Below are positions 4,128 to 55,148 of a DNA stretch of 55,240 nucleotides, piece by piece. Positions within the stretch are counted from its first letter, which is position 1, and every line of letters begins with the position of its first letter. The position numbers were made by a program, and so were the translations under genes. The notes beneath the pieces were generated by a model. The model was given only the letters and a program-made list of their open reading frames with translations. It was not told the origin of the DNA and did not search any database. The DNA lies in contig JBGAIQ010000039.1 of assembly GCA_044225365.1 (NCBI GenBank), positions 1-55,240 of the forward strand, given 5' to 3'. The stretch comes from Planctomycetota bacterium (lineage in GTDB: Bacteria; Planctomycetota; B15-G4; JADJEK01).

Positions 4128-5354
4128 GTGAACGAGACGCTCGATACTGAAGTCGCGATCATCGGCGGCGGGCCCGCTGGAATGCTGCTTTCCCTGCTGC
4201 TCGCACGCGAGGGCGTTCGGACGGTCGTGCTGGAGCGCCACGCCGATTTTGCGCGCGAGTATCGCGGCGAAGTCCTCATGCCGCGATTCTCGCGACTCTT
4301 CCATCAGCTTGGACTCGACGAGCTCATCGCCGGTTTGCCGCATCGCAGACTCGACGCGCTCTGGATCCACGATCAGGAGCGAAAGATCGCGGAGGTTCGA
4401 TTCGATCGCTTCGAACACGAGTTTCCGTATGCGCTCTGGATCCCGCAGACGATCCTGCTCGACGCTCTCGCCGCCGCCGCGAAGCCTTACGCCGCGCATC
4501 GACTCCTTCTCGGCACGACTCTGCGCGACCTCGTTCGCGATCACGAGAAGGTGACCGGCCTCGTTGCCGAGCGGGGCGAAGATCTCCTCGAGATCCGTGC
4601 CAACGTGGTGGTCGGCGCGGATGGGCGCTTCTCATCGGTGCGACGGCTCGGTCGATTCGAGATCGAATACGAAGCGCACGATTTCGACGTGCTCTGGTTC
4701 ACGCTTCCGGATGACGGAGGAGGCGAGGTCGCTGCCGTCCGCGGCTATCTCAGTCCCGCTCGCGGTTACCTTGCCCTGCCGAAGTACCCGGCATCGCTGC
4801 AATGCGGAATGCTGCTGCCGCCGAACGGTTTCGCGTACTACCGCGAGCATGGAGTCGAGGCGCTTCGCAAGCATCTGCTCGAGGGACCGAAGTTCCTGCA
4901 TGACTTCGCGCGGTCGATCCACGACCTGAAGCCGTTCACGCTCCTCCATGCCAATCTCGATCTCGTGCGCGATTGGGAGCGGGACGGACTCGTCCTCATC
5001 GGCGACGCGGCGCACACCTGTTCTCCGGCCGGCGCCGTCGGTGTGTCGATCGCGGCCGAGACCGCGGCCGTTGCCGCCGATGTCCTCATCGATTGCGTTC
5101 GACGCTCTGACTTCTCGAAAGCCGCGCTCGATCGGATTCAGGCGCGCCGCGAACCCGCGATTCGACAGGTCCATGCTCGTCAGCGTCGCATCGGCACCCA
5201 ACTCGCCGGATCCGCCCTCGGCCGTCGCATTGCGACGCTCGTCATTCCCTGGCTCAGCAAGTTGCATCTGCCCGAGCGCTTGTTCGGACCCCTTGCATGC
5301 GGCGAGGCCCTGGAGCTCGACGTCGTTCGTCGCTCTCCAGGGCCTCCAAACTGA
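4128..5354 (+). CDS. FAD-dependent oxidoreductase/monooxygenase (UbiH-like)
   Basis: IIGGGPAG, VVGADGRFS, LIGDAAH..SPAGAVG. Confidence 0.9.
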   Translation: MNETLDTEVAIIGGGPAGMLLSLLLAREGVRTVVLERHADFAREYRGEVLMPRFSRLFHQLGLDELIAGLPHRRLDALWIHDQERKIAEVRFDRFEHEFPYALWIPQTILLDALAAAAKPYAAHRLLLGTTLRDLVRDHEKVTGLVAERGEDLLEIRANVVVGADGRFSSVRRLGRFEIEYEAHDFDVLWFTLPDDGGGEVAAVRGYLSPARGYLALPKYPASLQCGMLLPPNGFAYYREHGVEALRKHLLEGPKFLHDFARSIHDLKPFTLLHANLDLVRDWERDGLVLIGDAAHTCSPAGAVGVSIAAETAAVAADVLIDCVRRSDFSKAALDRIQARREPAIRQVHARQRRIGTQLAGSALGRRIATLVIPWLSKLHLPERLFGPLACGEALELDVVRRSPGPPN

Positions 5355-5361
5355 ATCGAGT

Positions 5362-6354
5362 TCAACCGGTGGCCTTGGCGGCGAGGCCTTCCTTCACGAG
5401 CTTCTCGATCTTGTCGTGAGACTTCTTGCCGGAGCCCACCGCGTTGCCAAGCACCTTCCCGTCCTTGCCGATGACGAAGACGGTAGGAATGCCCTTCACG
5501 TAGAACTGTTCCTTGCTGACCTTCGCGTCGGTGAACACGATCGGGTAGTTCACTTCGAAGGCCTTGATGAACACTTCGTTCACCTTCATCTCATCGGCCT
5601 CGGGGATCGGACTCGTCCGACTGCCGACCTGCTTGCCGCCGTGCGGCTTCTCCGCATTGGGATCGGAGAAGTCCATGCCATAGCCGAAGAGGCGCGTCGC
5701 GCCGACGACCTGCACATCGCCCTTGTGTTCCTTTTGCAGTTCCACGAGTTCGGGGATGACCATGCGGCACGGCGGACACCAAGTCGCCCAGAAGTCGATG
5801 ACGACGACCTTGCCCTTGAGAGCCTTCATGTCGAACGTCCCGTTCAGGACCTTCGAAACCTCGAACGCCGGGCACGGCTTGCCGTTGAGTTCGCCGCGCT
5901 TCACGTCGTCGGGCAGGTTGCCCTTGAAGTACTCGAGCATCTGCTTCTGTTCATCGCCGAGTCCGTTGTCCTTCGTCTCGTTCGCGAGCTTCAGCAGTTC
6001 CGATGGCTCGTGATCGGACCCTCCGACGACGATCGCCTCCACCCGCGCGCGATTCGCGAGGTCGCTGTCCTTGTGGTCCGCGGCGTACTTCACGAGGAGC
6101 TTGTACGCGGCCTCGGTTTGGTTCGCGCGACCCAGCAGCATTCCCTGGTAGACGAGCCCTTCGTCGGTCGCGAGATCGGCGGCATTGTCCTTCAAGGCCT
6201 GCTCCGCGGCCGCCTTGATCGACGCCATCGCCGAATCTCCATCCTTGGCCGCCGCCGCCGCGCTATCGACCTTCTCGATGATCGCGTCGAACTTCGACGT
6301 GTCGCCCACGACGGGCATCGACAACATGAACGCGAGGGACAACGCGACGAACAT
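5362..6354 (-). CDS. Exported TlpA/ResA-like thiol:disulfide oxidoreductase
   Basis: Signal peptide; KGKVVVIDFWATWCPPC; GIPTVFVIGKDG. Confidence 0.9.
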   Translation of the reverse strand: MFVALSLAFMLSMPVVGDTSKFDAIIEKVDSAAAAAKDGDSAMASIKAAAEQALKDNAADLATDEGLVYQGMLLGRANQTEAAYKLLVKYAADHKDSDLANRARVEAIVVGGSDHEPSELLKLANETKDNGLGDEQKQMLEYFKGNLPDDVKRGELNGKPCPAFEVSKVLNGTFDMKALKGKVVVIDFWATWCPPCRMVIPELVELQKEHKGDVQVVGATRLFGYGMDFSDPNAEKPHGGKQVGSRTSPIPEADEMKVNEVFIKAFEVNYPIVFTDAKVSKEQFYVKGIPTVFVIGKDGKVLGNAVGSGKKSHDKIEKLVKEGLAAKATG

Positions 6355-6458
6355 GGGCGCACTCCTGGTTTCGTGATGGATGGACTACAGATCCGTTCGC
6401 ACCGGATGGATCCTACCGCCTCCGGCAATGGCGTCGATCCCGGACCGCCGGGACTGCG

Positions 6459-6822
6459 GGACCGCCGGGCTCTGCCCGGCATTCTTGGTTCCATGCCACG
6501 CTGGAGCGTGGCGGTCCGGCAGTCAGGCTTCCTTGGACCGCCGGGCTCTGCCCGGCATTCTTGGTTCCATGCCACGCTGGAGCGTGGCGGTCCGACGATC
6601 GGGTTTCCTTGGACCGCCGGGCTCTGCCCGGCATTCTTGGTTCCATGCCACGCTGGAGCGTGGCGGTCCGACGATCGGGTTTCCTCGGGCCGCCGGGCTC
6701 TGCCCGGCATTCTTGGTTCCTTGCCACGCTGGAGCGTGGCGGTCCGGCAGTCGGGTTTCCTCGGACCGCCGGGCTCTGCCCGGCATTCTTGGTTCCTTGC
6801 CACGCTGGAGCGTGGCGGTCCG
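6459..6822. repeat. Tandem array of 5 REP-doublet (REPIN/BIME-like) units, 76-bp period
   Basis: Units start at 6459, 6535, 6611, 6687, 6763: GGACCGCCGGGCTCTGCCCGGC-ATTCTTGGTTCCWT-GCCACGCTGGAGCGTGGCGGTCC-G plus a 16-nt near-identical linker; partial GGACCGCCGGG at 6442. Confidence 0.92.
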
Positions 6823-6827
6823 CATGA

Positions 6828-7967
6828 TCACGACGCCGTCTTGATTTCGTTCCAAAGCCGATCCCACACGCTCTGATCGCGCCCGAGGTCGATCTGGTAC
6901 TCGAGGCGCTTGCGCTCGTCTTCCCCGGGATAGGGCATCGCGTTCCCAAGCCTCGCTTGCGCGGCGGCGTTCGGCGTGCCGTAGCCCGTGACTTTCGATA
7001 TCGCCGCGCCGACGTCGGCCCGCAGGACGTAGTCGATGAACGCGTGCGCCGCGTTCGGATGCTGGCCTGCCTTCGGGATCACGAGCGAATCCGACCACAG
7101 GTTGCCGCCCTCCTTCGGCAGCACCCATTCGACCTTCGCATCCTCCGCCTTCGCCTGCAGCGAATCGCCGTTCCAAAGCTGGGCGACCCACACCTCGCCC
7201 GCGATGAGCTGCTGCTTCACCGCCGCCGAGATCCATGCCTTCACGTTCTTCTTCGCGACGATGGCGTCCTGCTTCGCGACCTCGAGCTTGCTCGTATCGC
7301 GGCAGTTCAGCGACTCGCCCTTCCACTTCAGCATCCCGCCGATGACTTCGCGGCCGTCGTCCATCATCGTCATCTTCCGGCGATAGCGCGAGTCCGCGAA
7401 GATCCCGTAGTCGGTCGGCGGGACTTCGAGCTTGTCCGAGCGATATGAGATGCCCGTCATGCCCCACTGATACGGCGCGGTGTAGACGTTGCCCTTGTCC
7501 CAGGGAGCGTCGAGGAACGCCTTCTCGTAGTTCGCGAAGTTCTTGATGCGCGATCGATCGAGCGGCACGAGCAGGTCGGCGGCGATGAGCCGCGTCACCG
7601 TGTAGCCGGTGGGCACGCAGAGGTCGTACGCCGACCCGCCGGTCAACAGTTTGGCCTCGAGCTCTTCGTTGCTCTCGTAGGTGTCGTACTTCACCTTCAC
7701 GCCGAACTCCTTCTCGAAGTTCGCGACCGTGTCCTCCGCGATGTAATCCGACCAATTGAAGACGTAGAGCTCTGGCTCGAGTCCGTTCGGCATCAGCGTC
7801 GACGACTTCGCGCCGGATTCCGAACGGCCACACGCAGAGAGCGCCGCGCTGACGATCGGCAACGTCGCTCCGAGCGCGAGCATTCGCGTGACGAAGTCGC
7901 GACGCGATAGAGCGCCACGCCGAAGGTCGAGGAACAATTCGATGGCGCGTTCTTCGGAATGAGTCAT
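6828..7967 (-). CDS. potD: Polyamine ABC transporter substrate-binding protein (PotD/PotF); Tat-like signal plus lipobox
   Basis: LYVFNWSDYI, FEKEFGVKV.YDTYESNEE, PYQWGMTGI, PKEGGNLWSD; SRRDFV...LSAC. Confidence 0.88.
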   Translation of the reverse strand: MTHSEERAIELFLDLRRGALSRRDFVTRMLALGATLPIVSAALSACGRSESGAKSSTLMPNGLEPELYVFNWSDYIAEDTVANFEKEFGVKVKYDTYESNEELEAKLLTGGSAYDLCVPTGYTVTRLIAADLLVPLDRSRIKNFANYEKAFLDAPWDKGNVYTAPYQWGMTGISYRSDKLEVPPTDYGIFADSRYRRKMTMMDDGREVIGGMLKWKGESLNCRDTSKLEVAKQDAIVAKKNVKAWISAAVKQQLIAGEVWVAQLWNGDSLQAKAEDAKVEWVLPKEGGNLWSDSLVIPKAGQHPNAAHAFIDYVLRADVGAAISKVTGYGTPNAAAQARLGNAMPYPGEDERKRLEYQIDLGRDQSVWDRLWNEIKTAS

Positions 7968-13086: not shown

Positions 13087-13890
13087 ATGTCCGTGCGCTT
13101 CCAGAATCGTTCGCTCATCCGCGCCGCGGCCTTCTTCGTCGGCGATCGCATCGACACGCGCGCGCTCGAGACGACGGAGCGGCTCGCAGCGTTCCCGCTC
13201 CTCATCGCCGCCGGTGAGCAGGGGTGTGCCGCCATCTTTCGGTACGGGGCGGTCGTGCTCTTCGACCTCACGCCGGTGGAGCAGGCTTCGTTCTTGAAGC
13301 ACCTGCAGGCCTTCGTGCAGGCACCGTCGCCGAAGCCGGAGACCGAGGAAGTCACGTTGAAGCTCGATGCGACGACGGAGGACGAGCGAGCGGACAACGG
13401 GCTCGTCACGGTGAAGGACTTCTCGAACGAGCGGATCCTGACAGTCGCCGACATCCTGGCGAAGAGCGTGATCCTCGCGCGTTACGAGTCGAGCGTGGCC
13501 GCGATCTTCGATTCGATCGAGCCGCTCGCCGAGCGCCTTCGCCAGGGCGAGGGGGCTGACCCGCACGGCAAGCCGTTGCTCGCGCACATCGGTAACGCAC
13601 TGCTCATCCAGCATCGAATGGTCGGTCGCGCCGAGATCGAGGACAAGCCCGAGGTGTTGTGGAACCTGCCCGATCTCGAGCGATTCTACGTCCGGCTCGA
13701 GGACGAGTACGAGCTCGTCGAGCGGCATCGGGTGCTCAATCGCAAGATCGACCTCATTTCGAGAACGGCGGAGACGCTGCTGCAGCTCTCGCAGGCCCAG
13801 CGGTCGCTGCGCGTCGAGTATTACATCGTGATCCTGATCGTGTTCGAGATCGTCATCACGCTGATCGATATGTTCGTGATGCGGCGGTAG
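13087..13890 (+). CDS. RMD1/DUF155-family protein
   Basis: IFRYGAVVLF, LAKSVILARYE, DKPEVLW..PDLERFY..LEDEYEL.ER, C-terminal TM helix. Confidence 0.88.
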   Translation: MSVRFQNRSLIRAAAFFVGDRIDTRALETTERLAAFPLLIAAGEQGCAAIFRYGAVVLFDLTPVEQASFLKHLQAFVQAPSPKPETEEVTLKLDATTEDERADNGLVTVKDFSNERILTVADILAKSVILARYESSVAAIFDSIEPLAERLRQGEGADPHGKPLLAHIGNALLIQHRMVGRAEIEDKPEVLWNLPDLERFYVRLEDEYELVERHRVLNRKIDLISRTAETLLQLSQAQRSLRVEYYIVILIVFEIVITLIDMFVMRR

Positions 13891-14087
13891 GTCGGAGCGG
13901 AGAAGAGCCGCGCTGGAGCGCGGCGGTCCAATGTCGCGCGGTTCGACATGTTCGTGATGCGGCGGTAGGTCGGAGCGGAGAAGAGCCGCGCTGGAGCGCG
14001 GCGGTCCAATGTCGCGCGGATCGATATGTTCGTGATGCGGCGGTAGGTCGGAGCGGAGAAGAGCCGCGCTGGAGCGCGGCGGTCCAA
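13863..14087. repeat. Tandem array of ~2.9 x 78-bp units, each made of the RMD1 gene 3' end plus one REP hairpin
   Basis: ATGTTCGTGATGCGGCGGTAG at 13870, 13948, 14026; GCCGCGCTGGAGCGCGGCGGTCC at 13907, 13985, 14063. Confidence 0.92.
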
Positions 14088-21753: not shown

Positions 21754-21923
21754 AGTGAATTGCTGAGCGGCACGGCCCCGGACCGCTCTTTCTGAAGTCT
21801 CCGGGACCACAAACTAGTACTCGCCCGACGTTGCGGAATCGCCCCGCGATGTCGGGCGCTTCTCTTTCGCGCGCGATTCCGCCGCTATCATGGCCGCTTC
21901 GTATCCATGCTTCGAAGGAACGC

Positions 21924-43147: not shown

Positions 43148-44590
43148 ATGAAGCCGATCCACTCCACAGCGACCCTCGTTCTTTCGTGTCTCGTCATCGC
43201 GTTCACGGGGGCCTGCGCGGTGCAAGCCCCGAAGCAAGACGAGCGACCGCTGCTCACGTGGCGCATCGAGTATCGACATCGGCTCGCTCCCGACAAGACG
43301 AGCGAGGACTTCGTTCTCGACCGAGTCGTCGAAGAGGGCCCGTGGTGCGGACCGGATCCACGTCATTTCGCAGAGGACGATCTCGGACTCTACCGTTGTG
43401 AACTTGTCGAGAAGGGCACCGGCAGAGTGTTCTTCGCGGCTGGCTTCTGCTCGGTGTTCGGTGAATGGCGCACGACCGACGACGCCAAGGCGCATCCCGA
43501 GCGAGCTTTCGAAGAGTCGCTGCGCGTGCCGTCGCCGACCGCTCCTTGCGATGTGCGGATCCTAAAGCGAGACGCCATGAATCGCTTCGCGCCCATCTTC
43601 ACGGGGGAGTTGCCCGGTCCCATCGAAACCGCGAAGGATTGCGATCCGAACGACCTGCGCGAGCTCGGTCCCATTTCGGATCCACGCACGCAGGTGGACC
43701 TGCTCTTCCTCGGCGATGGGTATACCGAAGCCGATCGCGCCAAGTTCTTCGCCGATGCGACTCGCTTGTCGGAGTCGCTTCTTTCGCGCGAGCCCTATCG
43801 CGCGCAGCGCTTGAAGTTCAACGTGCGTGCGTTGTTCACACCGGGCGCCGTCCCCGGAATCGCGAACCCCGACGCCAAGGTCGAACACGACTCGGCGCTC
43901 GGCTGCCGCTTCTCCACCTTCGGGCTTCCCCGCTACGTCCTCACGCTCGAGGATCGAAAGTGGCGCGCCGCGACCGGTCGCGTTCCCTACGACGCCGTCA
44001 TCATGCTCGTGAATTCTCGAGACTATGGCGGGGGCGGGATCTTCAACACCTATTGCATCGCGACGGCCGACAATCCCGCCTCGCCCTACCTCGTTGCCCA
44101 CGAATTCGGGCATTCGTTCTCAGGGCTCGGAGACGAGTACTACACCTCGCCGGTCGCATACCGGGATTTCGCGTCGAAGACCGTCGAGCCATGGGAACCG
44201 AACATCACGGCCCTCCTCGACCCTGCGGCGCTCAAATGGAAAGATGCCGTCGCAGCGGGCACCGATCTGCCCACTCCGTGGGCGAAGGCCGAGTTCGACA
44301 CCTTGAGCAAGACCATCGAAGCCCTGAAGAGTTCGCTCGACGCGGAAGTCGCGGCGGGAAGAAAGACGTCATCCGAGGCCGCCGCCATCGTGGAAGACTC
44401 GCGTCGCGCTGCAATGCGACGCATCTTCGATTCCCCGGAGCGAATCGGCGCCTACGAGGGGGCGCTCTACGAGTCGCACGGCCTGTATCGCCCCGCGGTC
44501 GACTGCATCATGTTTCGACGGGACTGCGATCGGTATTGCCAGGTCTGCTCGCGCTCGGTCGCACGGCGCATCGCCAATCTGACTTCGTGA
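43148..44590 (+). CDS. M64 (IgA peptidase-like) metallopeptidase, lipoprotein
   Basis: FTGAC lipobox; LGDGYT, YGGGGIFN, AHEFGHSFSGLGDEY, YRPAVDCIM, CQVC. Confidence 0.9.
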   Translation: MKPIHSTATLVLSCLVIAFTGACAVQAPKQDERPLLTWRIEYRHRLAPDKTSEDFVLDRVVEEGPWCGPDPRHFAEDDLGLYRCELVEKGTGRVFFAAGFCSVFGEWRTTDDAKAHPERAFEESLRVPSPTAPCDVRILKRDAMNRFAPIFTGELPGPIETAKDCDPNDLRELGPISDPRTQVDLLFLGDGYTEADRAKFFADATRLSESLLSREPYRAQRLKFNVRALFTPGAVPGIANPDAKVEHDSALGCRFSTFGLPRYVLTLEDRKWRAATGRVPYDAVIMLVNSRDYGGGGIFNTYCIATADNPASPYLVAHEFGHSFSGLGDEYYTSPVAYRDFASKTVEPWEPNITALLDPAALKWKDAVAAGTDLPTPWAKAEFDTLSKTIEALKSSLDAEVAAGRKTSSEAAAIVEDSRRAAMRRIFDSPERIGAYEGALYESHGLYRPAVDCIMFRRDCDRYCQVCSRSVARRIANLTS

Positions 44591-44750
44591 GGCGGTCGAC
44601 GGCCGCGGAAGGCTCCGGCTCGATTCGAGAGTCGAGCTGTATCTTTTTGGAACACTTTTCTGACTCGGTCGGTGGTCCAACCCCCAGATGATCGCCTAAT
44701 ACATTCAGCAAGAGCGACTTGCGAAATTACTCCCAATCGGCCTAGGGGTT

Positions 44751-45025
44751 GCTTGCTTCCCGGTGCTCCCGTTCGAGCCTGAAGAAGGCAAGTTTCTTGG
44801 TCGCACGTCCTCCCATTCCCCTAGATCCCCACGATGCGTCACTCCCCGTGGCGTACTCGTCTCCTGACCTCGTGCGGCCAGGCAATTCGTTCGGGAGCAA
44901 GCGAAGTCTGCTTCTCTCCCCCTTCTCCCTTTTCCCGGTTCCGCGCTGCCCGGCGCGGTAGTTCACTGCTCAGAAGCGGCTTCGTCGGAGCCCGACTCGC
45001 GCCGAGTCGGGCTCCACTTTTTTTT
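44751..45025 (+). ncRNA. Candidate structured ncRNA with C/U-rich loops
   Basis: Nested stems 44764-71/44892-99, 44796-807/44871-82, 44831-42/44848-60, plus 44941-47/44952-58; mismatches are G-U on the + strand; ends in an intrinsic terminator; lies between convergent genes. Confidence 0.6.
44987..45025 (+). terminator. Rho-independent terminator
   Basis: GGAGCCCGACTCG-CGC-CGAGTCGGGCTCC (13-bp perfect stem) followed by AC-T8. Confidence 0.9.
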
Positions 45026-45051
45026 CACGACGGGTCGGCGCGAGAGCGCCG

Positions 45052-46209
45052 TCAGGACTTCTTCGAGAGCGATCGGTCGAGCGCCATCACCGAGAACGCC
45101 GTCCCCCACGTCTTCGAGAGGTCCGCGACGTAGAAGTCCCAGAACGAACCGTCGTCCTGCTGGCACTTCATCAGGTGGTATCGCAGCTTGGAGAACTCCT
45201 CCGAGCGCTTCGGCTCGGCAAGCCGGTCGATCGTGAACGCCGCGTAGTAGTGGCCGAACAGGTAGAAGTAGGCCGCGTTCTGATAGTAGGCCTCGTGCGG
45301 GATCGGTTTGTTGGTCGCGACGTCGAGGAATTTGTGGTCCTCGAAGAACGCGTCGACTCCCCTCTCCAGCGCACCTTCCTCGAGCGTGACTCCGGCGCGG
45401 AGCAGCGCGTAATTGCCCGCCTGGATCCGACCGAGCGAGCCCTTCACCTGATTGATCGTGCCGCCCGGCATCCGGCGCGGGTAAGCCGCGATGTCGTAGT
45501 CGTAGGCGCCATTCGGCAGCCGCGCCCGATCGAGCGCGTGGATCGCCACCGTCTTCATCTTGACGTCGACCGGCAGCTTCAGCGCATCCGCATCCAGGAT
45601 CGCGAGGATCGCCGCCGAAGTGGTGAACGACGTACCCCAATCGGGTCGCCATGCCGCGTCGGGATCGGCGTAGTAGCCCCATCCGCCGCGAGCTCCCTGG
45701 TACTCACGTAGACCGTCGAGATAGGTCTTCGCGGCCTCCATCAACTCGCCGCGCCGCGGACCGCCCGAGTACCGCGGGTCGTTGAGCGCCGCGCAAATCG
45801 TGGTGAGCCCGTAGATCAGGCCCCAGTTGTTGTCGATGTCCCATTGCGCGGGACGCAGGACCTTGGCGTTCTTCAAGACGTAGTCGAGCCCACGCTCCAC
45901 GGCCTTGTCGGCTTTCTCGCCATGGTCGAGCGTGAGGATCGCCTGCGTCGCGAGGGCCGAAGCGCCGAGCTGCCAGCACGAGTAGGTCGCGGGATTCGCG
46001 AAGTACGAATTGAAGGCGATGTTCCGAATCGCGCCGAACGAACCGTTCTCGTTCTGAACGGAGTAGAGGAAGGCGAGGCCCTTCGCGATCGATTGCTTCA
46101 CCGCGTCGGTCGAGACATCGAGCGATGCCGTCGTCGCCGGCTTCTGCGGTGCTGCGTCGTCCGTGGGCGGGAGCGCGAGCGCTCCAAGGAGGACGACTCC
46201 TCCGATCAT
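45052..46209 (-). CDS. Exported prenyltransferase/squalene-oxidase repeat (alpha/alpha toroid) protein
   Basis: QNENGSFG, YQGARGGWGYY, LPNGAYDY, QQDDGSFWD repeats; ATGA overlap with the upstream gene. Confidence 0.78.
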   Translation of the reverse strand: MIGGVVLLGALALPPTDDAAPQKPATTASLDVSTDAVKQSIAKGLAFLYSVQNENGSFGAIRNIAFNSYFANPATYSCWQLGASALATQAILTLDHGEKADKAVERGLDYVLKNAKVLRPAQWDIDNNWGLIYGLTTICAALNDPRYSGGPRRGELMEAAKTYLDGLREYQGARGGWGYYADPDAAWRPDWGTSFTTSAAILAILDADALKLPVDVKMKTVAIHALDRARLPNGAYDYDIAAYPRRMPGGTINQVKGSLGRIQAGNYALLRAGVTLEEGALERGVDAFFEDHKFLDVATNKPIPHEAYYQNAAYFYLFGHYYAAFTIDRLAEPKRSEEFSKLRYHLMKCQQDDGSFWDFYVADLSKTWGTAFSVMALDRSLSKKS

Positions 46210-46907
46210 GACTTGACCCCGGCCGCCGCCGCGGCGAGGTCCGTCTCCGCCTTCGCCACCTCCGATTCGGCGCTGAGGACGCGAACTTCGCGATCGATCC
46301 GATCGTTCTGCAGGGCCGCGCGAGACTTCTGGAGGTCGGCTTCCTTGCGCGCGACGTCGAGTTCGAGCTTCGCCTGTTCGCGAGGCAGGTCGTGCTTCGT
46401 CGTCACTTCCATGTTCTTCTTCGCGATCTCGAGCTGCTTCGCGGCGCGTTCGGCGTTGCGGCGTCCGCGGCTCACGACGAACTCCTTCGTCCGATCGTCG
46501 AGTTTCTGGCCCTCGTACATCGCCTCGATCTGCGAGAGCTCGTCGGCGTTCTCCTGGGCCGCATCGCTCATTCGCTGGACATCGAGTTCGGCCTGCGCGA
46601 GCTTGTTCGGGAGTTCCAAAGTCTTGAACGTCTCGAGCTTCTCCTTCGCCATCGCAAGGTCCTTCTCGGCGAAGGCGAGTTCCTTCTCCTTCGCGGCGAT
46701 ATCGACCTCCATCGCCATCTTGGCCTGTTCGAGATGGCGCTTCGCGATCTCGAGCGCGATCTCGAGCGGACGCTTCTTCGCGTTGTCGGCCGTCGCTTGA
46801 ACGGTTGCGGGCGCGGACTGCACTTCGGCTCGAGTGCTTCGAACACTCGTTCCGCTGCATCCCGTGGCGACGATGGCGAACAACAACGCGGTGGACTGGA
46901 AACGCAT
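46206..46907 (-). CDS. Coiled-coil lipoprotein
   Basis: VATGC lipobox; continuous heptad-rich helical sequence. Confidence 0.75.
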   Translation of the reverse strand: MRFQSTALLFAIVATGCSGTSVRSTRAEVQSAPATVQATADNAKKRPLEIALEIAKRHLEQAKMAMEVDIAAKEKELAFAEKDLAMAKEKLETFKTLELPNKLAQAELDVQRMSDAAQENADELSQIEAMYEGQKLDDRTKEFVVSRGRRNAERAAKQLEIAKKNMEVTTKHDLPREQAKLELDVARKEADLQKSRAALQNDRIDREVRVLSAESEVAKAETDLAAAAAGVKS

Positions 46908-52959: not shown

Positions 52960-53475
52960 ATGAAGCGCACGCCGGCCTTCACCTTCGTCGAACTCGTCGT
53001 CGTCGTTGCCGTCATCCTCGCCCTCGCCGGGATCATCACGCCCTACGTATCGCGAGATCTCTCGGAGACCAAGGACCGAACGGCCCAGTCCGACGTGAAT
53101 CGCATCACGAGTGCGATCAACCGGTACATGAACGACACATTGCTGCCGCCGACCGGGGAGCAGGGAAAGCGCAGCTTCCACTTCCTCGTCGGACCTGGTG
53201 CCCCCCCCGTCGATAACTCGTTCAACTCCGGCGACTCGGCACCGCTCTCCGCGTTCTTCGAACACAACACGTGGAACAACGTCTCCTGGCGCGGGCCGTA
53301 CCTCGAGGACGTCGGGGCGGATCCATGGGGCTGTGCGTACATCGTGAACGTCGAGGGGTTCTGGAATCACGCCGAACGCATCTTCGTGATCTCCGCGGGG
53401 CCCGATCGCAAACTCGAGACGACGCCGACGGACGTGGAACCGAAGGGCGACGACGTCGCCAACATCATCAACTGA
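52960..53475 (+). CDS. gspG: Type II secretion major pseudopilin GspG-like protein
   Basis: PA|FTFVELVVVV prepilin motif (Ala rather than Gly at -1); WRGPYL, DPWG..Y, ISAGPD. Confidence 0.75.
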   Translation: MKRTPAFTFVELVVVVAVILALAGIITPYVSRDLSETKDRTAQSDVNRITSAINRYMNDTLLPPTGEQGKRSFHFLVGPGAPPVDNSFNSGDSAPLSAFFEHNTWNNVSWRGPYLEDVGADPWGCAYIVNVEGFWNHAERIFVISAGPDRKLETTPTDVEPKGDDVANIIN

Positions 53476-53495: not shown

Positions 53496-55148
53496 ATGGA
53501 CAGTGGCAAGAACGACACCTCGACGGCTACGCCCGTTGCGAAGAAGGGCACGAGCGGGCGTTTCGGTGATCGTCTCGTCGAGCTCGGCATCATCACGGCC
53601 TCTCAACTTCGCGTCGCGCTCGAAGAGCAGAAGCGAACGGGCGAGCGCGTCGGTGAAGTCCTCGCAAGCCTCGGCTTCGTGCGGGATGAGCAGATCGTCA
53701 AGCTCGTCGCGGAGGATCTCGGAATCCCCTTCGTCAAGATCTCGGAAGTCCAGACCGACCCGTCGCTCAAGACGAAGTTCGATTCCGAATTCCTCTCACA
53801 ACGCGCCATCGCGCCTTTGCGCGAGGATCGCGGGATCCTGATCGTCGCGACCGCCCGGCCCGCCGACGTTGCATCGATCGATCAATTCCAGAAGGCGCTT
53901 CGCAAACCACTCCGAGTCGTGGCGGCGAGTCAGAACGACATTCGCGAGTACCTGAGCGGCTTCTCGAAACAAGAAGTCGCTCGCGACACCGCGGTCGGCG
54001 TCGACGAAGTCACCGATCAAGTCGAGTCATTGCTCGAACGCGCCATTCGCGAACGCGCTACGGATATCCACATCGAGCCGGACGAGAAGCTGCTGCGCGT
54101 TCGCTTGCGAATCGACGGCATCCTCCGCGCCGCCGATTCGTTCTCCGTGTCGACGGGACAGGCGCTCGTCGCGCGCGTGAAGGTCTTGGCGAACGTCGAT
54201 CTCGCGGAACATCGCAGACCCCAGGACGGGCGATTCGACTTCACGATGAACGGTCAGCGCTTCGACTTCCGTGTCTCCATTCGCCCCACCCGTCACGGCG
54301 AGAACATCGTCCTTCGCGTGCTCGAACGCAACGGCGGCAACGCTCGACTCGAGCAACTCCGCCTGCCGAAGGCGGTCGACGCGCACGTACGGAAGATCTG
54401 CGACATGCCGCACGGGCTGTTCCTCGTCGCGGGTCCGACGGGATCGGGCAAGACGACGACGCTCTACTCTGCGCTCCGAACGATCGACGCGATGGCGCGC
54501 AACGTCACGAGCATCGAAGACCCGATCGAGGGCGACCTGCCTCTCGTCCGTCAATCGCAGGTCGATCCCTCCATCGGTTTCGGTTTCGCCGAGGGCCTTC
54601 GATCGCTGCTTCGCCAGGATCCTGACGTGGTGCTCGTCGGGGAGATTCGCGATCGCGATACCGCCGAGATCGCGATGCGCGCGTCGCTCACGGGACACCT
54701 CGTATTCGCGACGCTGCACGCCAACGACTCGATCGCCGCCGTGCCCCGTCTCCTCGACATGGGAATCGAGCCGTTCTTGCTCAACACGTCTCTCATCGGA
54801 GTCCTCGCCCAACGACTCGTGCGAATGCTCTGCCCCGCCTGCAGGTTCGAAGACGCTCCCGATGATTTCGACCGCGCCCTGTTCGGTGACAAACCTCCCG
54901 AACGCGTGATCCACGCGAAGGGATGCAAGAAGTGCGGAAGCAGCGGTTTCTTGAAGCGCGCCGGGATCTTCGAACTGTTCATGCCCGACGGAGACTGCCG
55001 GAAGATCATCCTGAACGGATGCAACGCCACCGAGCTTCGAGCGCTCGCGATCCACAACGGTTTCAAGCCGATGTTCGTCGATAGTCGCCAGAAGGTCCGT
55101 GACGGAATCACATCGTCACGCGAAGTGATTCGCGTCTCCGTGTGTTGA
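53496..55148 (+). CDS. gspE: GspE/PilB-family secretion ATPase with MshEN-like N-terminus
   Basis: RFGDRLVELG.I...QL..AL.EQ...GERVGEVL; ATDIHIEP, GPTGSGKTTTLY, LRQDPDVVLVGEIRD, CPAC/CKKC. Confidence 0.92.
   Translation: MDSGKNDTSTATPVAKKGTSGRFGDRLVELGIITASQLRVALEEQKRTGERVGEVLASLGFVRDEQIVKLVAEDLGIPFVKISEVQTDPSLKTKFDSEFLSQRAIAPLREDRGILIVATARPADVASIDQFQKALRKPLRVVAASQNDIREYLSGFSKQEVARDTAVGVDEVTDQVESLLERAIRERATDIHIEPDEKLLRVRLRIDGILRAADSFSVSTGQALVARVKVLANVDLAEHRRPQDGRFDFTMNGQRFDFRVSIRPTRHGENIVLRVLERNGGNARLEQLRLPKAVDAHVRKICDMPHGLFLVAGPTGSGKTTTLYSALRTIDAMARNVTSIEDPIEGDLPLVRQSQVDPSIGFGFAEGLRSLLRQDPDVVLVGEIRDRDTAEIAMRASLTGHLVFATLHANDSIAAVPRLLDMGIEPFLLNTSLIGVLAQRLVRMLCPACRFEDAPDDFDRALFGDKPPERVIHAKGCKKCGSSGFLKRAGIFELFMPDGDCRKIILNGCNATELRALAIHNGFKPMFVDSRQKVRDGITSSREVIRVSVC

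Follow-up and report, generated by a model that had tools for sequence, protein, structure and literature searches.

What occupies the gap between an M64 peptidase gene and the gene convergent with it in the 55,240 nucleotides of Planctomycetota DNA analysed here (contig JBGAIQ010000039.1 of assembly GCA_044225365.1; the whole stretch is referred to as the window)? The gap measures 461 bp, in keeping with the ~460 bp given in a preliminary description of this DNA, which had placed in it an unannotated structured RNA with C/U-rich loops and a terminator of its own. Our answer is a tentative one. We propose, as a possible reading, that the gap holds a stand-alone gene for a non-coding RNA on the + strand, which would act through antisense pairing of its C-rich segments with G-rich sites. 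The evidence consists of a predicted fold that exceeds chance on one strand, a concentration of exposed UCCC motifs and a pair of bracketing terminator-like hairpins. We infer the transcription of the candidate, its own promoter and the whole of its mechanism, and the reading of the locus as a new small RNA (sRNA) is plausible but unproven.

The fold described here is a minimum free energy (MFE) prediction of the + strand, and the pairing probabilities are likewise predicted. The parts of the candidate and of the region directly upstream are as follows.

44616-44648, + strand: terminator-like hairpin of the M64 gene, 26 nt past the stop; 10-bp stem with five G-C pairs and two wobbles, then a T-rich tail, TATCTTTTTG
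44649-44763, + strand: spacer of lower GC content (52-53% GC), the expected site of a promoter and of the 5' end
44764-44899, + strand: domain 1, a rod of 136 nt with ~42 pairs in the MFE fold
44764-44771/44892-44899, + strand: closing helix of domain 1, 8 bp
44777-44789, + strand: small side hairpin of domain 1
44792-44807/44871-44886, + strand: 3+12-bp helix of domain 1, the 12-bp part (44796-44807/44871-44882) with two G-U pairs
44808-44830, + strand: 5' side of the asymmetric internal loop of domain 1, 23 nt, C/U-rich, with three UCCC; mean unpaired probability 0.87
44831-44842/44848-44860, + strand: terminal hairpin of domain 1, 12 bp plus one bulge, with two G-U pairs
44843-44847, + strand: loop of the terminal hairpin, UCCCC, 5 nt; unpaired probability 1.0
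44861-44870, + strand: 3' side of the internal loop, 10 nt, CUCCUGACCU; unpaired probability 0.72
44901-44985, + strand: domain 2, an interrupted 6+8-bp helix (44901-44915/44972-44985) around a pyrimidine tract and a GC hairpin
44916-44940, + strand: core of the pyrimidine tract, a multiloop tract of ~25 nt with three UCCC, mostly unpaired
44941-44947/44952-44958, + strand: GC hairpin CCGCGCU/GGCGCGG, 7 bp, loop GCCC
44987-45025, + strand: intrinsic terminator; stem 44987-45015 (13 bp, ten G-C pairs, 3-nt loop), then AC and U8 (the T8 run at 45018-45025)

The candidate RNA would comprise two folded domains followed by the Rho-independent terminator, with its 3' end at ~45025 and a length of ~260-375 nt, depending on where between ~44650 and 44764 it begins; seven UCCC would lie in predicted single-stranded parts. 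The nested helices, the UCCCC loop and the CCGCGCT/GGCGCGG hairpin of the preliminary description all recur in the + strand MFE fold at the coordinates given there, as does its 13-bp terminator with T8. Its pyrimidine-rich unpaired tracts were also found where it put them, at 44808-44830 and 44911-44936; in the slightly wider tract 44907-44937 the mean predicted unpaired probability is 0.66, rising to ~0.9 in the core. There is no detectable mark at 44751, where the element had been said to start.

Does the gap encode a protein? Its four open reading frames (ORFs) have codon-usage scores between -0.62 and -0.085 (log2 per codon), all of them close to or under the 5th percentile of real genes read in 70-codon windows (median 0.40, 5th percentile -0.115), and the claim of an unannotated non-coding region is borne out by these low scores. 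The 70-aa and 99-aa ORFs of the + strand have no relatives among 5.8 billion proteins. For the 74-aa ORF of the - strand there is one match (E 8e-7) among 1.84 billion representatives, which covers 33-36 residues at 36% identity in three repeat copies of an 835-aa protein; given the short stretch and the repeat protein, we judge the match to be due to chance and reject this ORF as a real small protein. With low coding scores, and with + strand ORFs that lack homologues, the small-protein reading of the gap was set aside altogether.

Nor is the candidate a known RNA under another name, because no Rfam family matches it. A cmscan search of the whole window against Rfam 15 at gathering scores gave 0 matches, and a search of 44550-45100 with permissive filters at E <= 10 gave only ylbH on the - strand, whose 17.8 bits fall short of the gathering score of 50. 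Neither 6S, RsaE, cuckoo, CsrB/Rsm nor any other family was matched in these scans, and ARAGORN detected no tRNA or tmRNA. The comparison with Rfam, 6S in particular, therefore leaves the novelty of the candidate standing.

On which strand would the RNA be made? We propose the + strand because the fold excess, nine G-U pairs and the U tract all point to it. Nine of the 83 predicted MFE pairs are G-U and become A-C mismatches on the - strand, which, together with a fold excess on the + strand only, agrees with the earlier argument that the G-U pairs favour + transcription. The U8 tract follows the terminator hairpin on the + strand only, and on the - strand no U tract follows either hairpin. 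Measured against dinucleotide shuffles (n = 200 per stretch), the whole stretch 44740-45030 has a z score of -5.0 on the + strand, with none of the 200 shuffles as good, and of -2.64 on the - strand (2/200). The values of the separate domains are more telling than these, because the terminator hairpin, which by itself folds at -28.2 kcal/mol with a z of -5.99, adds equally to both strands. Domain 1 without the terminator has a z of -4.16 on the + strand (0/200) and -1.26 on the - strand (26/200), and domain 2 has a z of -2.85 (2/200) and -0.01 (99/200), respectively. When the upstream spacer is included (44650-44986) the signal is weaker, with z values of -2.13 and -0.70. A genomic control, in which the MFE of 5510 windows of 141 nt (step 20, both strands of the 55 kb) was regressed on composition, gave domain 1 a residual z of -2.7 on the + strand and of -0.23 at the same place on the - strand. 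The thermodynamic signal is real and strand-specific, yet it is not exceptional. As a separate observation, the strongest composition-corrected fold excess of the window lies at 53700-53841, inside the T2SSE ATPase gene, with a residual z of -4.9 on the - strand and -3.7 on the + strand.

The motif and compositional signal is stronger than the thermodynamic one. TCCC occurs nine times in the 190 nt of 44751-44940, as against a mean of 0.69 per 190 nt, a 13-fold enrichment, and no other 190-nt window on either strand contains more than five. Seven of the nine UCCC copies have predicted unpaired probabilities of 0.68-1.0 and are distributed over the hairpin loop (one), the internal loop (three) and the domain 2 tract (three); the eighth, in the 5' leader, has an unpaired probability of 0.51, and the ninth lies within the closing helix. 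Among the unpaired bases of 44751-44986, 81% are pyrimidines (78/96) and only eight are G. Similarly, 44907-44937 is the sole tract in the 55 kb that is at least 22 nt long and at least 92% pyrimidine, or purine.

The terminators add a third line of evidence. Only three of the 45 terminator-like sites of the 55 kb have stems of at least 10 bp, and two of these three bracket the candidate RNA. The first, the hairpin that follows the M64 gene, folds at -18.9 kcal/mol with a z of -2.23 (6/200 shuffles as stable); the second ends 435 nt past the M64 stop in the T8 tract, and nowhere else in the 55 kb do eight T or eight A stand in a row. The window as a whole has ~63% GC, and a separate small gene would be expected to look like this, with a terminator on either side and a drop in GC between the two. 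Separately, we note that canonical intrinsic terminators are rare in this DNA, with three sites in 55 kb whose stems reach 10 bp, and that the longest terminator-like hairpin of the window lies at 21822-21858 on the + strand (15 pairs, 11 of them G-C, tail CTTCTCTTTC), within a 159-bp gap between two - strand ORFs.

How might the RNA act? We consider antisense pairing with G-rich sites the best-supported mechanism because the set of UCCC motifs resembles the motif of known UCCC sRNAs. The UCCC and CUCCC stretches would pair with GGGA- or GGGAG-like G-rich sequences in target mRNAs, sites resembling the Shine-Dalgarno (SD) motif included, and this pairing would alter the translation or stability of the targets. 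In Staphylococcus, according to PMC2790875, the unpaired UCCC of RsaE, of most other Rsa RNAs and of RNAIII binds SD regions and blocks initiation. The likeness to RsaE and RNAIII that the preliminary description had drawn is a fair one, in that the candidate carries exposed C/U-rich motifs of the same type (PMC2790875).

The UCCC-motif sRNAs of Firmicutes (RsaE/RoxS, the Rsa RNAs and RNAIII) and the candidate share several unpaired UCCC(C), a structured 5' part and a Rho-independent terminator; UCCC in the unpaired regions of a non-coding RNA with a terminator is what distinguishes such sRNAs, and the candidate has it by prediction. Unlike RsaE/RoxS, with which it shares neither sequence nor covariance-model similarity, the candidate resides in a probably Planctomycetota-like host of 63% GC in which few genes have SD motifs (5/33), and most of its motifs occupy an internal loop and a multiloop, not hairpin loops. 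It is also ~2-3 times longer than RsaE. The UCCC-motif class is a mechanistic class reached by convergence and not a homologous family.

Likewise, the cuckoo/CcsR RNAs of Alphaproteobacteria (RSs0680, RF02344) consist, according to PMC4615179, of two to four adjacent hairpins, each with an anti-SD-like CCUCCUCCC in its loop. Judged by that description, both they and the candidate repeat C/U-rich anti-SD-like motifs in one terminator-ended RNA (PMC4615179). In contrast to them, the candidate has no array of adjacent CCUCCUCCC-loop hairpins, and its sole C-rich hairpin loop is UCCCC. There are no exact copies of CCUCCUCCC in the window; two copies with one mismatch occur in the RNA, at 44806-44814 (the junction of helix and internal loop) and 44921-44929 (multiloop), neither of them in a hairpin loop. 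Membership in RsaE, cuckoo/CcsR, 6S and CsrB/Rsm was rejected, since in each case the candidate departs from the covariance model and from at least one architectural feature. It is new as a sequence; as a kind, it is a further candidate for an sRNA with a C-rich seed.

Several observations weigh against the reading of the locus as a stand-alone antisense RNA, and they concern the promoter, the targets, the fold and the relatives. No promoter was found: a sigma-70 consensus scan gave no site in the gap, and the sole well-placed hexamer of TAnnnT type in a relaxed scan, TACATT at 44700-44705, is without a good -35 partner. The consensus scan says little for this organism, because it gave three sites in the whole window, fewer than the ~5.5 expected from shuffles. 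As to targets, an SD-like motif (of the GGGAG, GAGGAG or AGGA type) precedes only five of the 33 longest-ORF starts in the window, the start positions being uncertain, and with so few SD-like starts a general occlusion of ribosome-binding sites would have few targets. At 43 start regions of the window, the C-rich segments have no pairing advantage over random coding sequence (duplex energies average -9.3 to -10.1 and -9.7 to -11.3 kcal/mol, respectively), and a scan of both window strands for targets showed no enrichment at starts. Since SD-like motifs and canonical terminators are both rare, initiation and termination in this organism are mostly non-canonical.

As to the fold, 90 of the 5510 windows of the genomic control have a residual z of -2.5 or below and 37 one of -3 or below, most of them inside genes, so that the excess of domain 1 places it only in the top ~1.6% of real genomic windows. 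Moreover, C-rich tracts in a G-poor RNA are predicted to be unpaired whatever their function, and the exposure of the motifs is partly a consequence of composition.

The search for relatives covered 72 M64-containing loci (1.19 Mb), which were found with the M64 protein among one genome per species of GTDB; the closest M64 relatives, in metagenome-assembled genomes (MAGs) labelled Planctomycetota, have 46% amino-acid identity. The source is therefore probably a Planctomycetota-like bacterium that has no close relative in this collection. Neither blastn nor nhmmer detected a homologue of 44641-45040 in these loci, and a covariance model built on domain 1 recovered nothing but domain 1 from the window and the 72 loci (next hits at E 0.85 and 1.1). 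Plasmid and phage collections, searched with blastn in distant mode, gave no match, and the window holds no second copy of the candidate RNA. What had been called a new sRNA family is accordingly a structured non-coding element with a terminator and no Rfam match, as described; the word family has no support so far, there being no second member in the 72 loci, the plasmids, the phages or the window. In a tblastn search with six neighbouring proteins besides M64, only one locus (L032), the sole syntenic one, shared further neighbours: two of them, which like M64 are 43-46% identical to their counterparts in amino-acid sequence. In L032 the M64 ORF overlaps the convergent ORF, with no space left between them for an RNA, and this locus lacks a homologue of the gene at 45052-46860, so that candidate RNA and gene are absent together. 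At 43-46% protein identity the two loci are far too distant, and this absence says little.

Two further observations were made in the collected loci. In loci of Aminicenantes/Saccharicenans MAGs, a conserved purine tract of ~25 nt is followed immediately by a largely complementary pyrimidine tract, forming a hairpin, unrelated to the candidate RNA, 1.2-2.7 kb upstream of M64 (L008 7338-7393; also L010, L012, L013, L015, L016, L019, L022, L024, L026 and L072), and a variant of it occurs in L028, L029, L030, L036 and L037. One Planctomycetota MAG locus (L050) contains at 7692-7772 an 81-nt pyrimidine microsatellite of the CCTTCCTCC type.

Because no promoter was found, read-through from the M64 gene keeps some probability, and it gives rise to the main rival, doubtful in our view though a serious contender: the region would be a structured 3' untranslated region (3'UTR) or termination zone of the M64 mRNA, reached by leakage through the hairpin at 44616-44648 and ended at T8. 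In variants of this explanation the tracts could pair back to the 5' region of the mRNA, could act as Rho loading sites resembling Rho utilisation (rut) sites, or the 3'UTR could be processed into an sRNA. A staphylococcal 3'UTR with a UCCC-type motif reportedly pairs back to the 5' region of its own mRNA. The candidate is indeed on the same strand and directly 3' of M64, there is no promoter found between the two terminators, and the first hairpin is modest, sites of its quality arising about once per kb in shuffles; on the other hand, it stands at the usual distance past the stop and has a T-rich tail, and the GC content between the terminators dips as in promoter regions. Pairing of two C-rich tracts with the M64 start is predicted at -16.3 and -16.0 kcal/mol, ranks 6 and 8 of 129 gene-segment pairs, energies that nevertheless fall within about one standard deviation of the coding background (-10.6 and -11.3; standard deviation 4.4-4.9). 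The GC skew of -0.20 to -0.27 (C over G) across 44750-44999 is of the kind seen at Rho loading sites. Yet rut sites are ~70-80 nt long, C-rich, G-poor and unstructured, whereas the G-poor tracts here are far shorter (23 and 31 nt) and stable helices enclose them.

It is rather unlikely that the region has no dedicated function. The gap would then be a spacer, perhaps a decayed remnant, in which fold and composition are incidental and the strong hairpin merely stops the convergent genes. The lack of a homologue in the loci, plasmids and phages searched accords with this explanation, as do the syntenic locus without a spacer, a fold excess equalled by 1.6% of ordinary genomic windows and the missing target signal inside the window. 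An incidental origin sits poorly, however, with the 13-fold enrichment of UCCC and a pyrimidine tract unique in the window, with a fold excess confined to one strand in both domains, and with a T8 terminator so far past the stop of M64, a gene already provided with its own terminator; and the one syntenic locus is too distant for the absence of an sRNA there to inform.

If the RNA exists as we propose, its exposed motifs need not silence single mRNAs. An alternative that we think improbable is a multi-UCCC decoy whose seven or more exposed motifs would titrate a C-patch-binding protein or G-rich RNAs. The idea of a protein partner is modelled on eukaryotes, where poly(C)-binding proteins with KH domains recognise tetrads of this kind; we know of no partner protein for UCCC in bacteria. 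A decoy of this kind, equally improbable, would be the first such RNA in an SD-poor, Planctomycetota-like bacterium and a pyrimidine counterpart of the GGA-rich CsrB/Rsm sponges.

It is slightly harder still to credit a function for the - strand, as a purine-rich RNA with ~11 GGA that forms a CsrA/RsmA-type sponge or as the 3'UTR of the gene at 45052-46860. Like CsrB/RsmY/RsmZ, the candidate repeats one short motif at exposed positions of a structured, terminator-ended RNA, and its - strand has 11 GGA (TCC on the + strand) in 190 nt, where the mean is 3.48. The UCCCC loop reads GGGGA there, with GGA inside a hairpin loop, the context that CsrA prefers, and the region lies directly 3' of the - strand gene. 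The strand that bears the terminator and the fold excess nevertheless carries UCC and not GGA, and there is no match to the sponge families in Rfam. The - strand itself has no fold excess (z -1.26 and -0.01 for the domains; genomic residual z -0.23), turns the nine G-U pairs into mismatches and lacks a U tract after either hairpin, and no CsrA gene was seen in the 55-kb window.

Finally, a divergent 6S RNA or a 6S-like RNA that binds RNA polymerase, which had been offered as an alternative, is very improbable: domain 1 does share with 6S (RF00013) a rod-like helix broken by a large internal loop, here of 23 and 10 nt, but 6S, which binds the RNA polymerase holoenzyme and templates product RNAs, is a rod of ~180-200 nt with a central bubble and a closing stem formed from its paired 5' and 3' ends, whereas only the first 136 nt of the candidate (~42 pairs) form a rod, its loop is pyrimidine-rich and strongly asymmetric, its closing stem is not made of the two ends of the RNA and is followed by 126 nt of further structure, the 3' domain and terminator included, and no 6S match was found in Rfam at the gathering score or at E <= 10.

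Why would a stand-alone + strand RNA with C-rich pairing segments matter? The PVC (Planctomycetes-Verrucomicrobia-Chlamydiae) group has eight distinct annotated sRNAs, compared with 345 for Proteobacteria, as tallied in a 2022 review (PMC9029176). A full-text literature search turned up no dedicated study of sRNAs or transcription start sites in Planctomycetes, and very little work has been done on regulatory RNAs across the PVC superphylum. If verified, the candidate would extend the convergently evolved C-rich seed beyond Firmicutes and Alphaproteobacteria, and one would then have to ask what a seed of this kind targets in an organism with few SD motifs. Its weight at present is modest: this is one unconserved in silico candidate, sRNA candidates known from one genome only are plentiful, and a specialist would find no surprise in this one before its expression and conservation are demonstrated.

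The M64 ORF on the + strand, whose stop is at 44588-44590, matches Pfam Peptidase_M64 with an E value of 4e-89, and the convergent ORF at 45052-46860 on the - strand has a weak match to squalene-hopene-cyclase/prenyltransferase repeats. The rest of the 55-kb window is ordinary chromosome, with transporters, peptidases, a fucosidase, topoisomerase I, an ATPase of the type II secretion system/type IV pilus (T2SS/T4P) and many proteins without a Pfam match.

Elsewhere in the window there are two tandem arrays. The first, at 6459-6822, repeats a 76-nt unit 4.8 times at 95% identity; every copy carries a hairpin of 7 bp, all G-C, with a T-rich tail behind it, and windows in this region are among the most stable folds of the 55 kb. 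It lies inside a 642-aa ORF (4948-6876, no Pfam match); since 76 is not divisible by three, each copy would be read in a different frame unless the ORF is spurious at this place. The second, at 13859-14087, repeats a 78-nt unit 2.9 times at 96% identity; it begins in the last codons of a DUF155 gene and spans the gap to a convergent gene for a LUD-domain protein. It is G-rich (45% G, 12 GGA), and the hairpin of its unit, a GCGCUGGAGCGC core followed by GGCGGTCC, resembles that of the 76-nt unit; judging from these hairpins, the two arrays may be one repeat family. Kinship of the CCGCGCU hairpin of the candidate RNA with these 76- and 78-nt repeats was considered and rejected, as blastn shows none. 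Finally, a short ORF absent from the ORF list lies at ~52960-53270, within the 484 bp that separate the T2SS/T4P ATPase gene from its upstream neighbour; its first residues, MKRTPAFTFVELVVVVAVILA, resemble an N-terminal methylation motif of the prepilin type.

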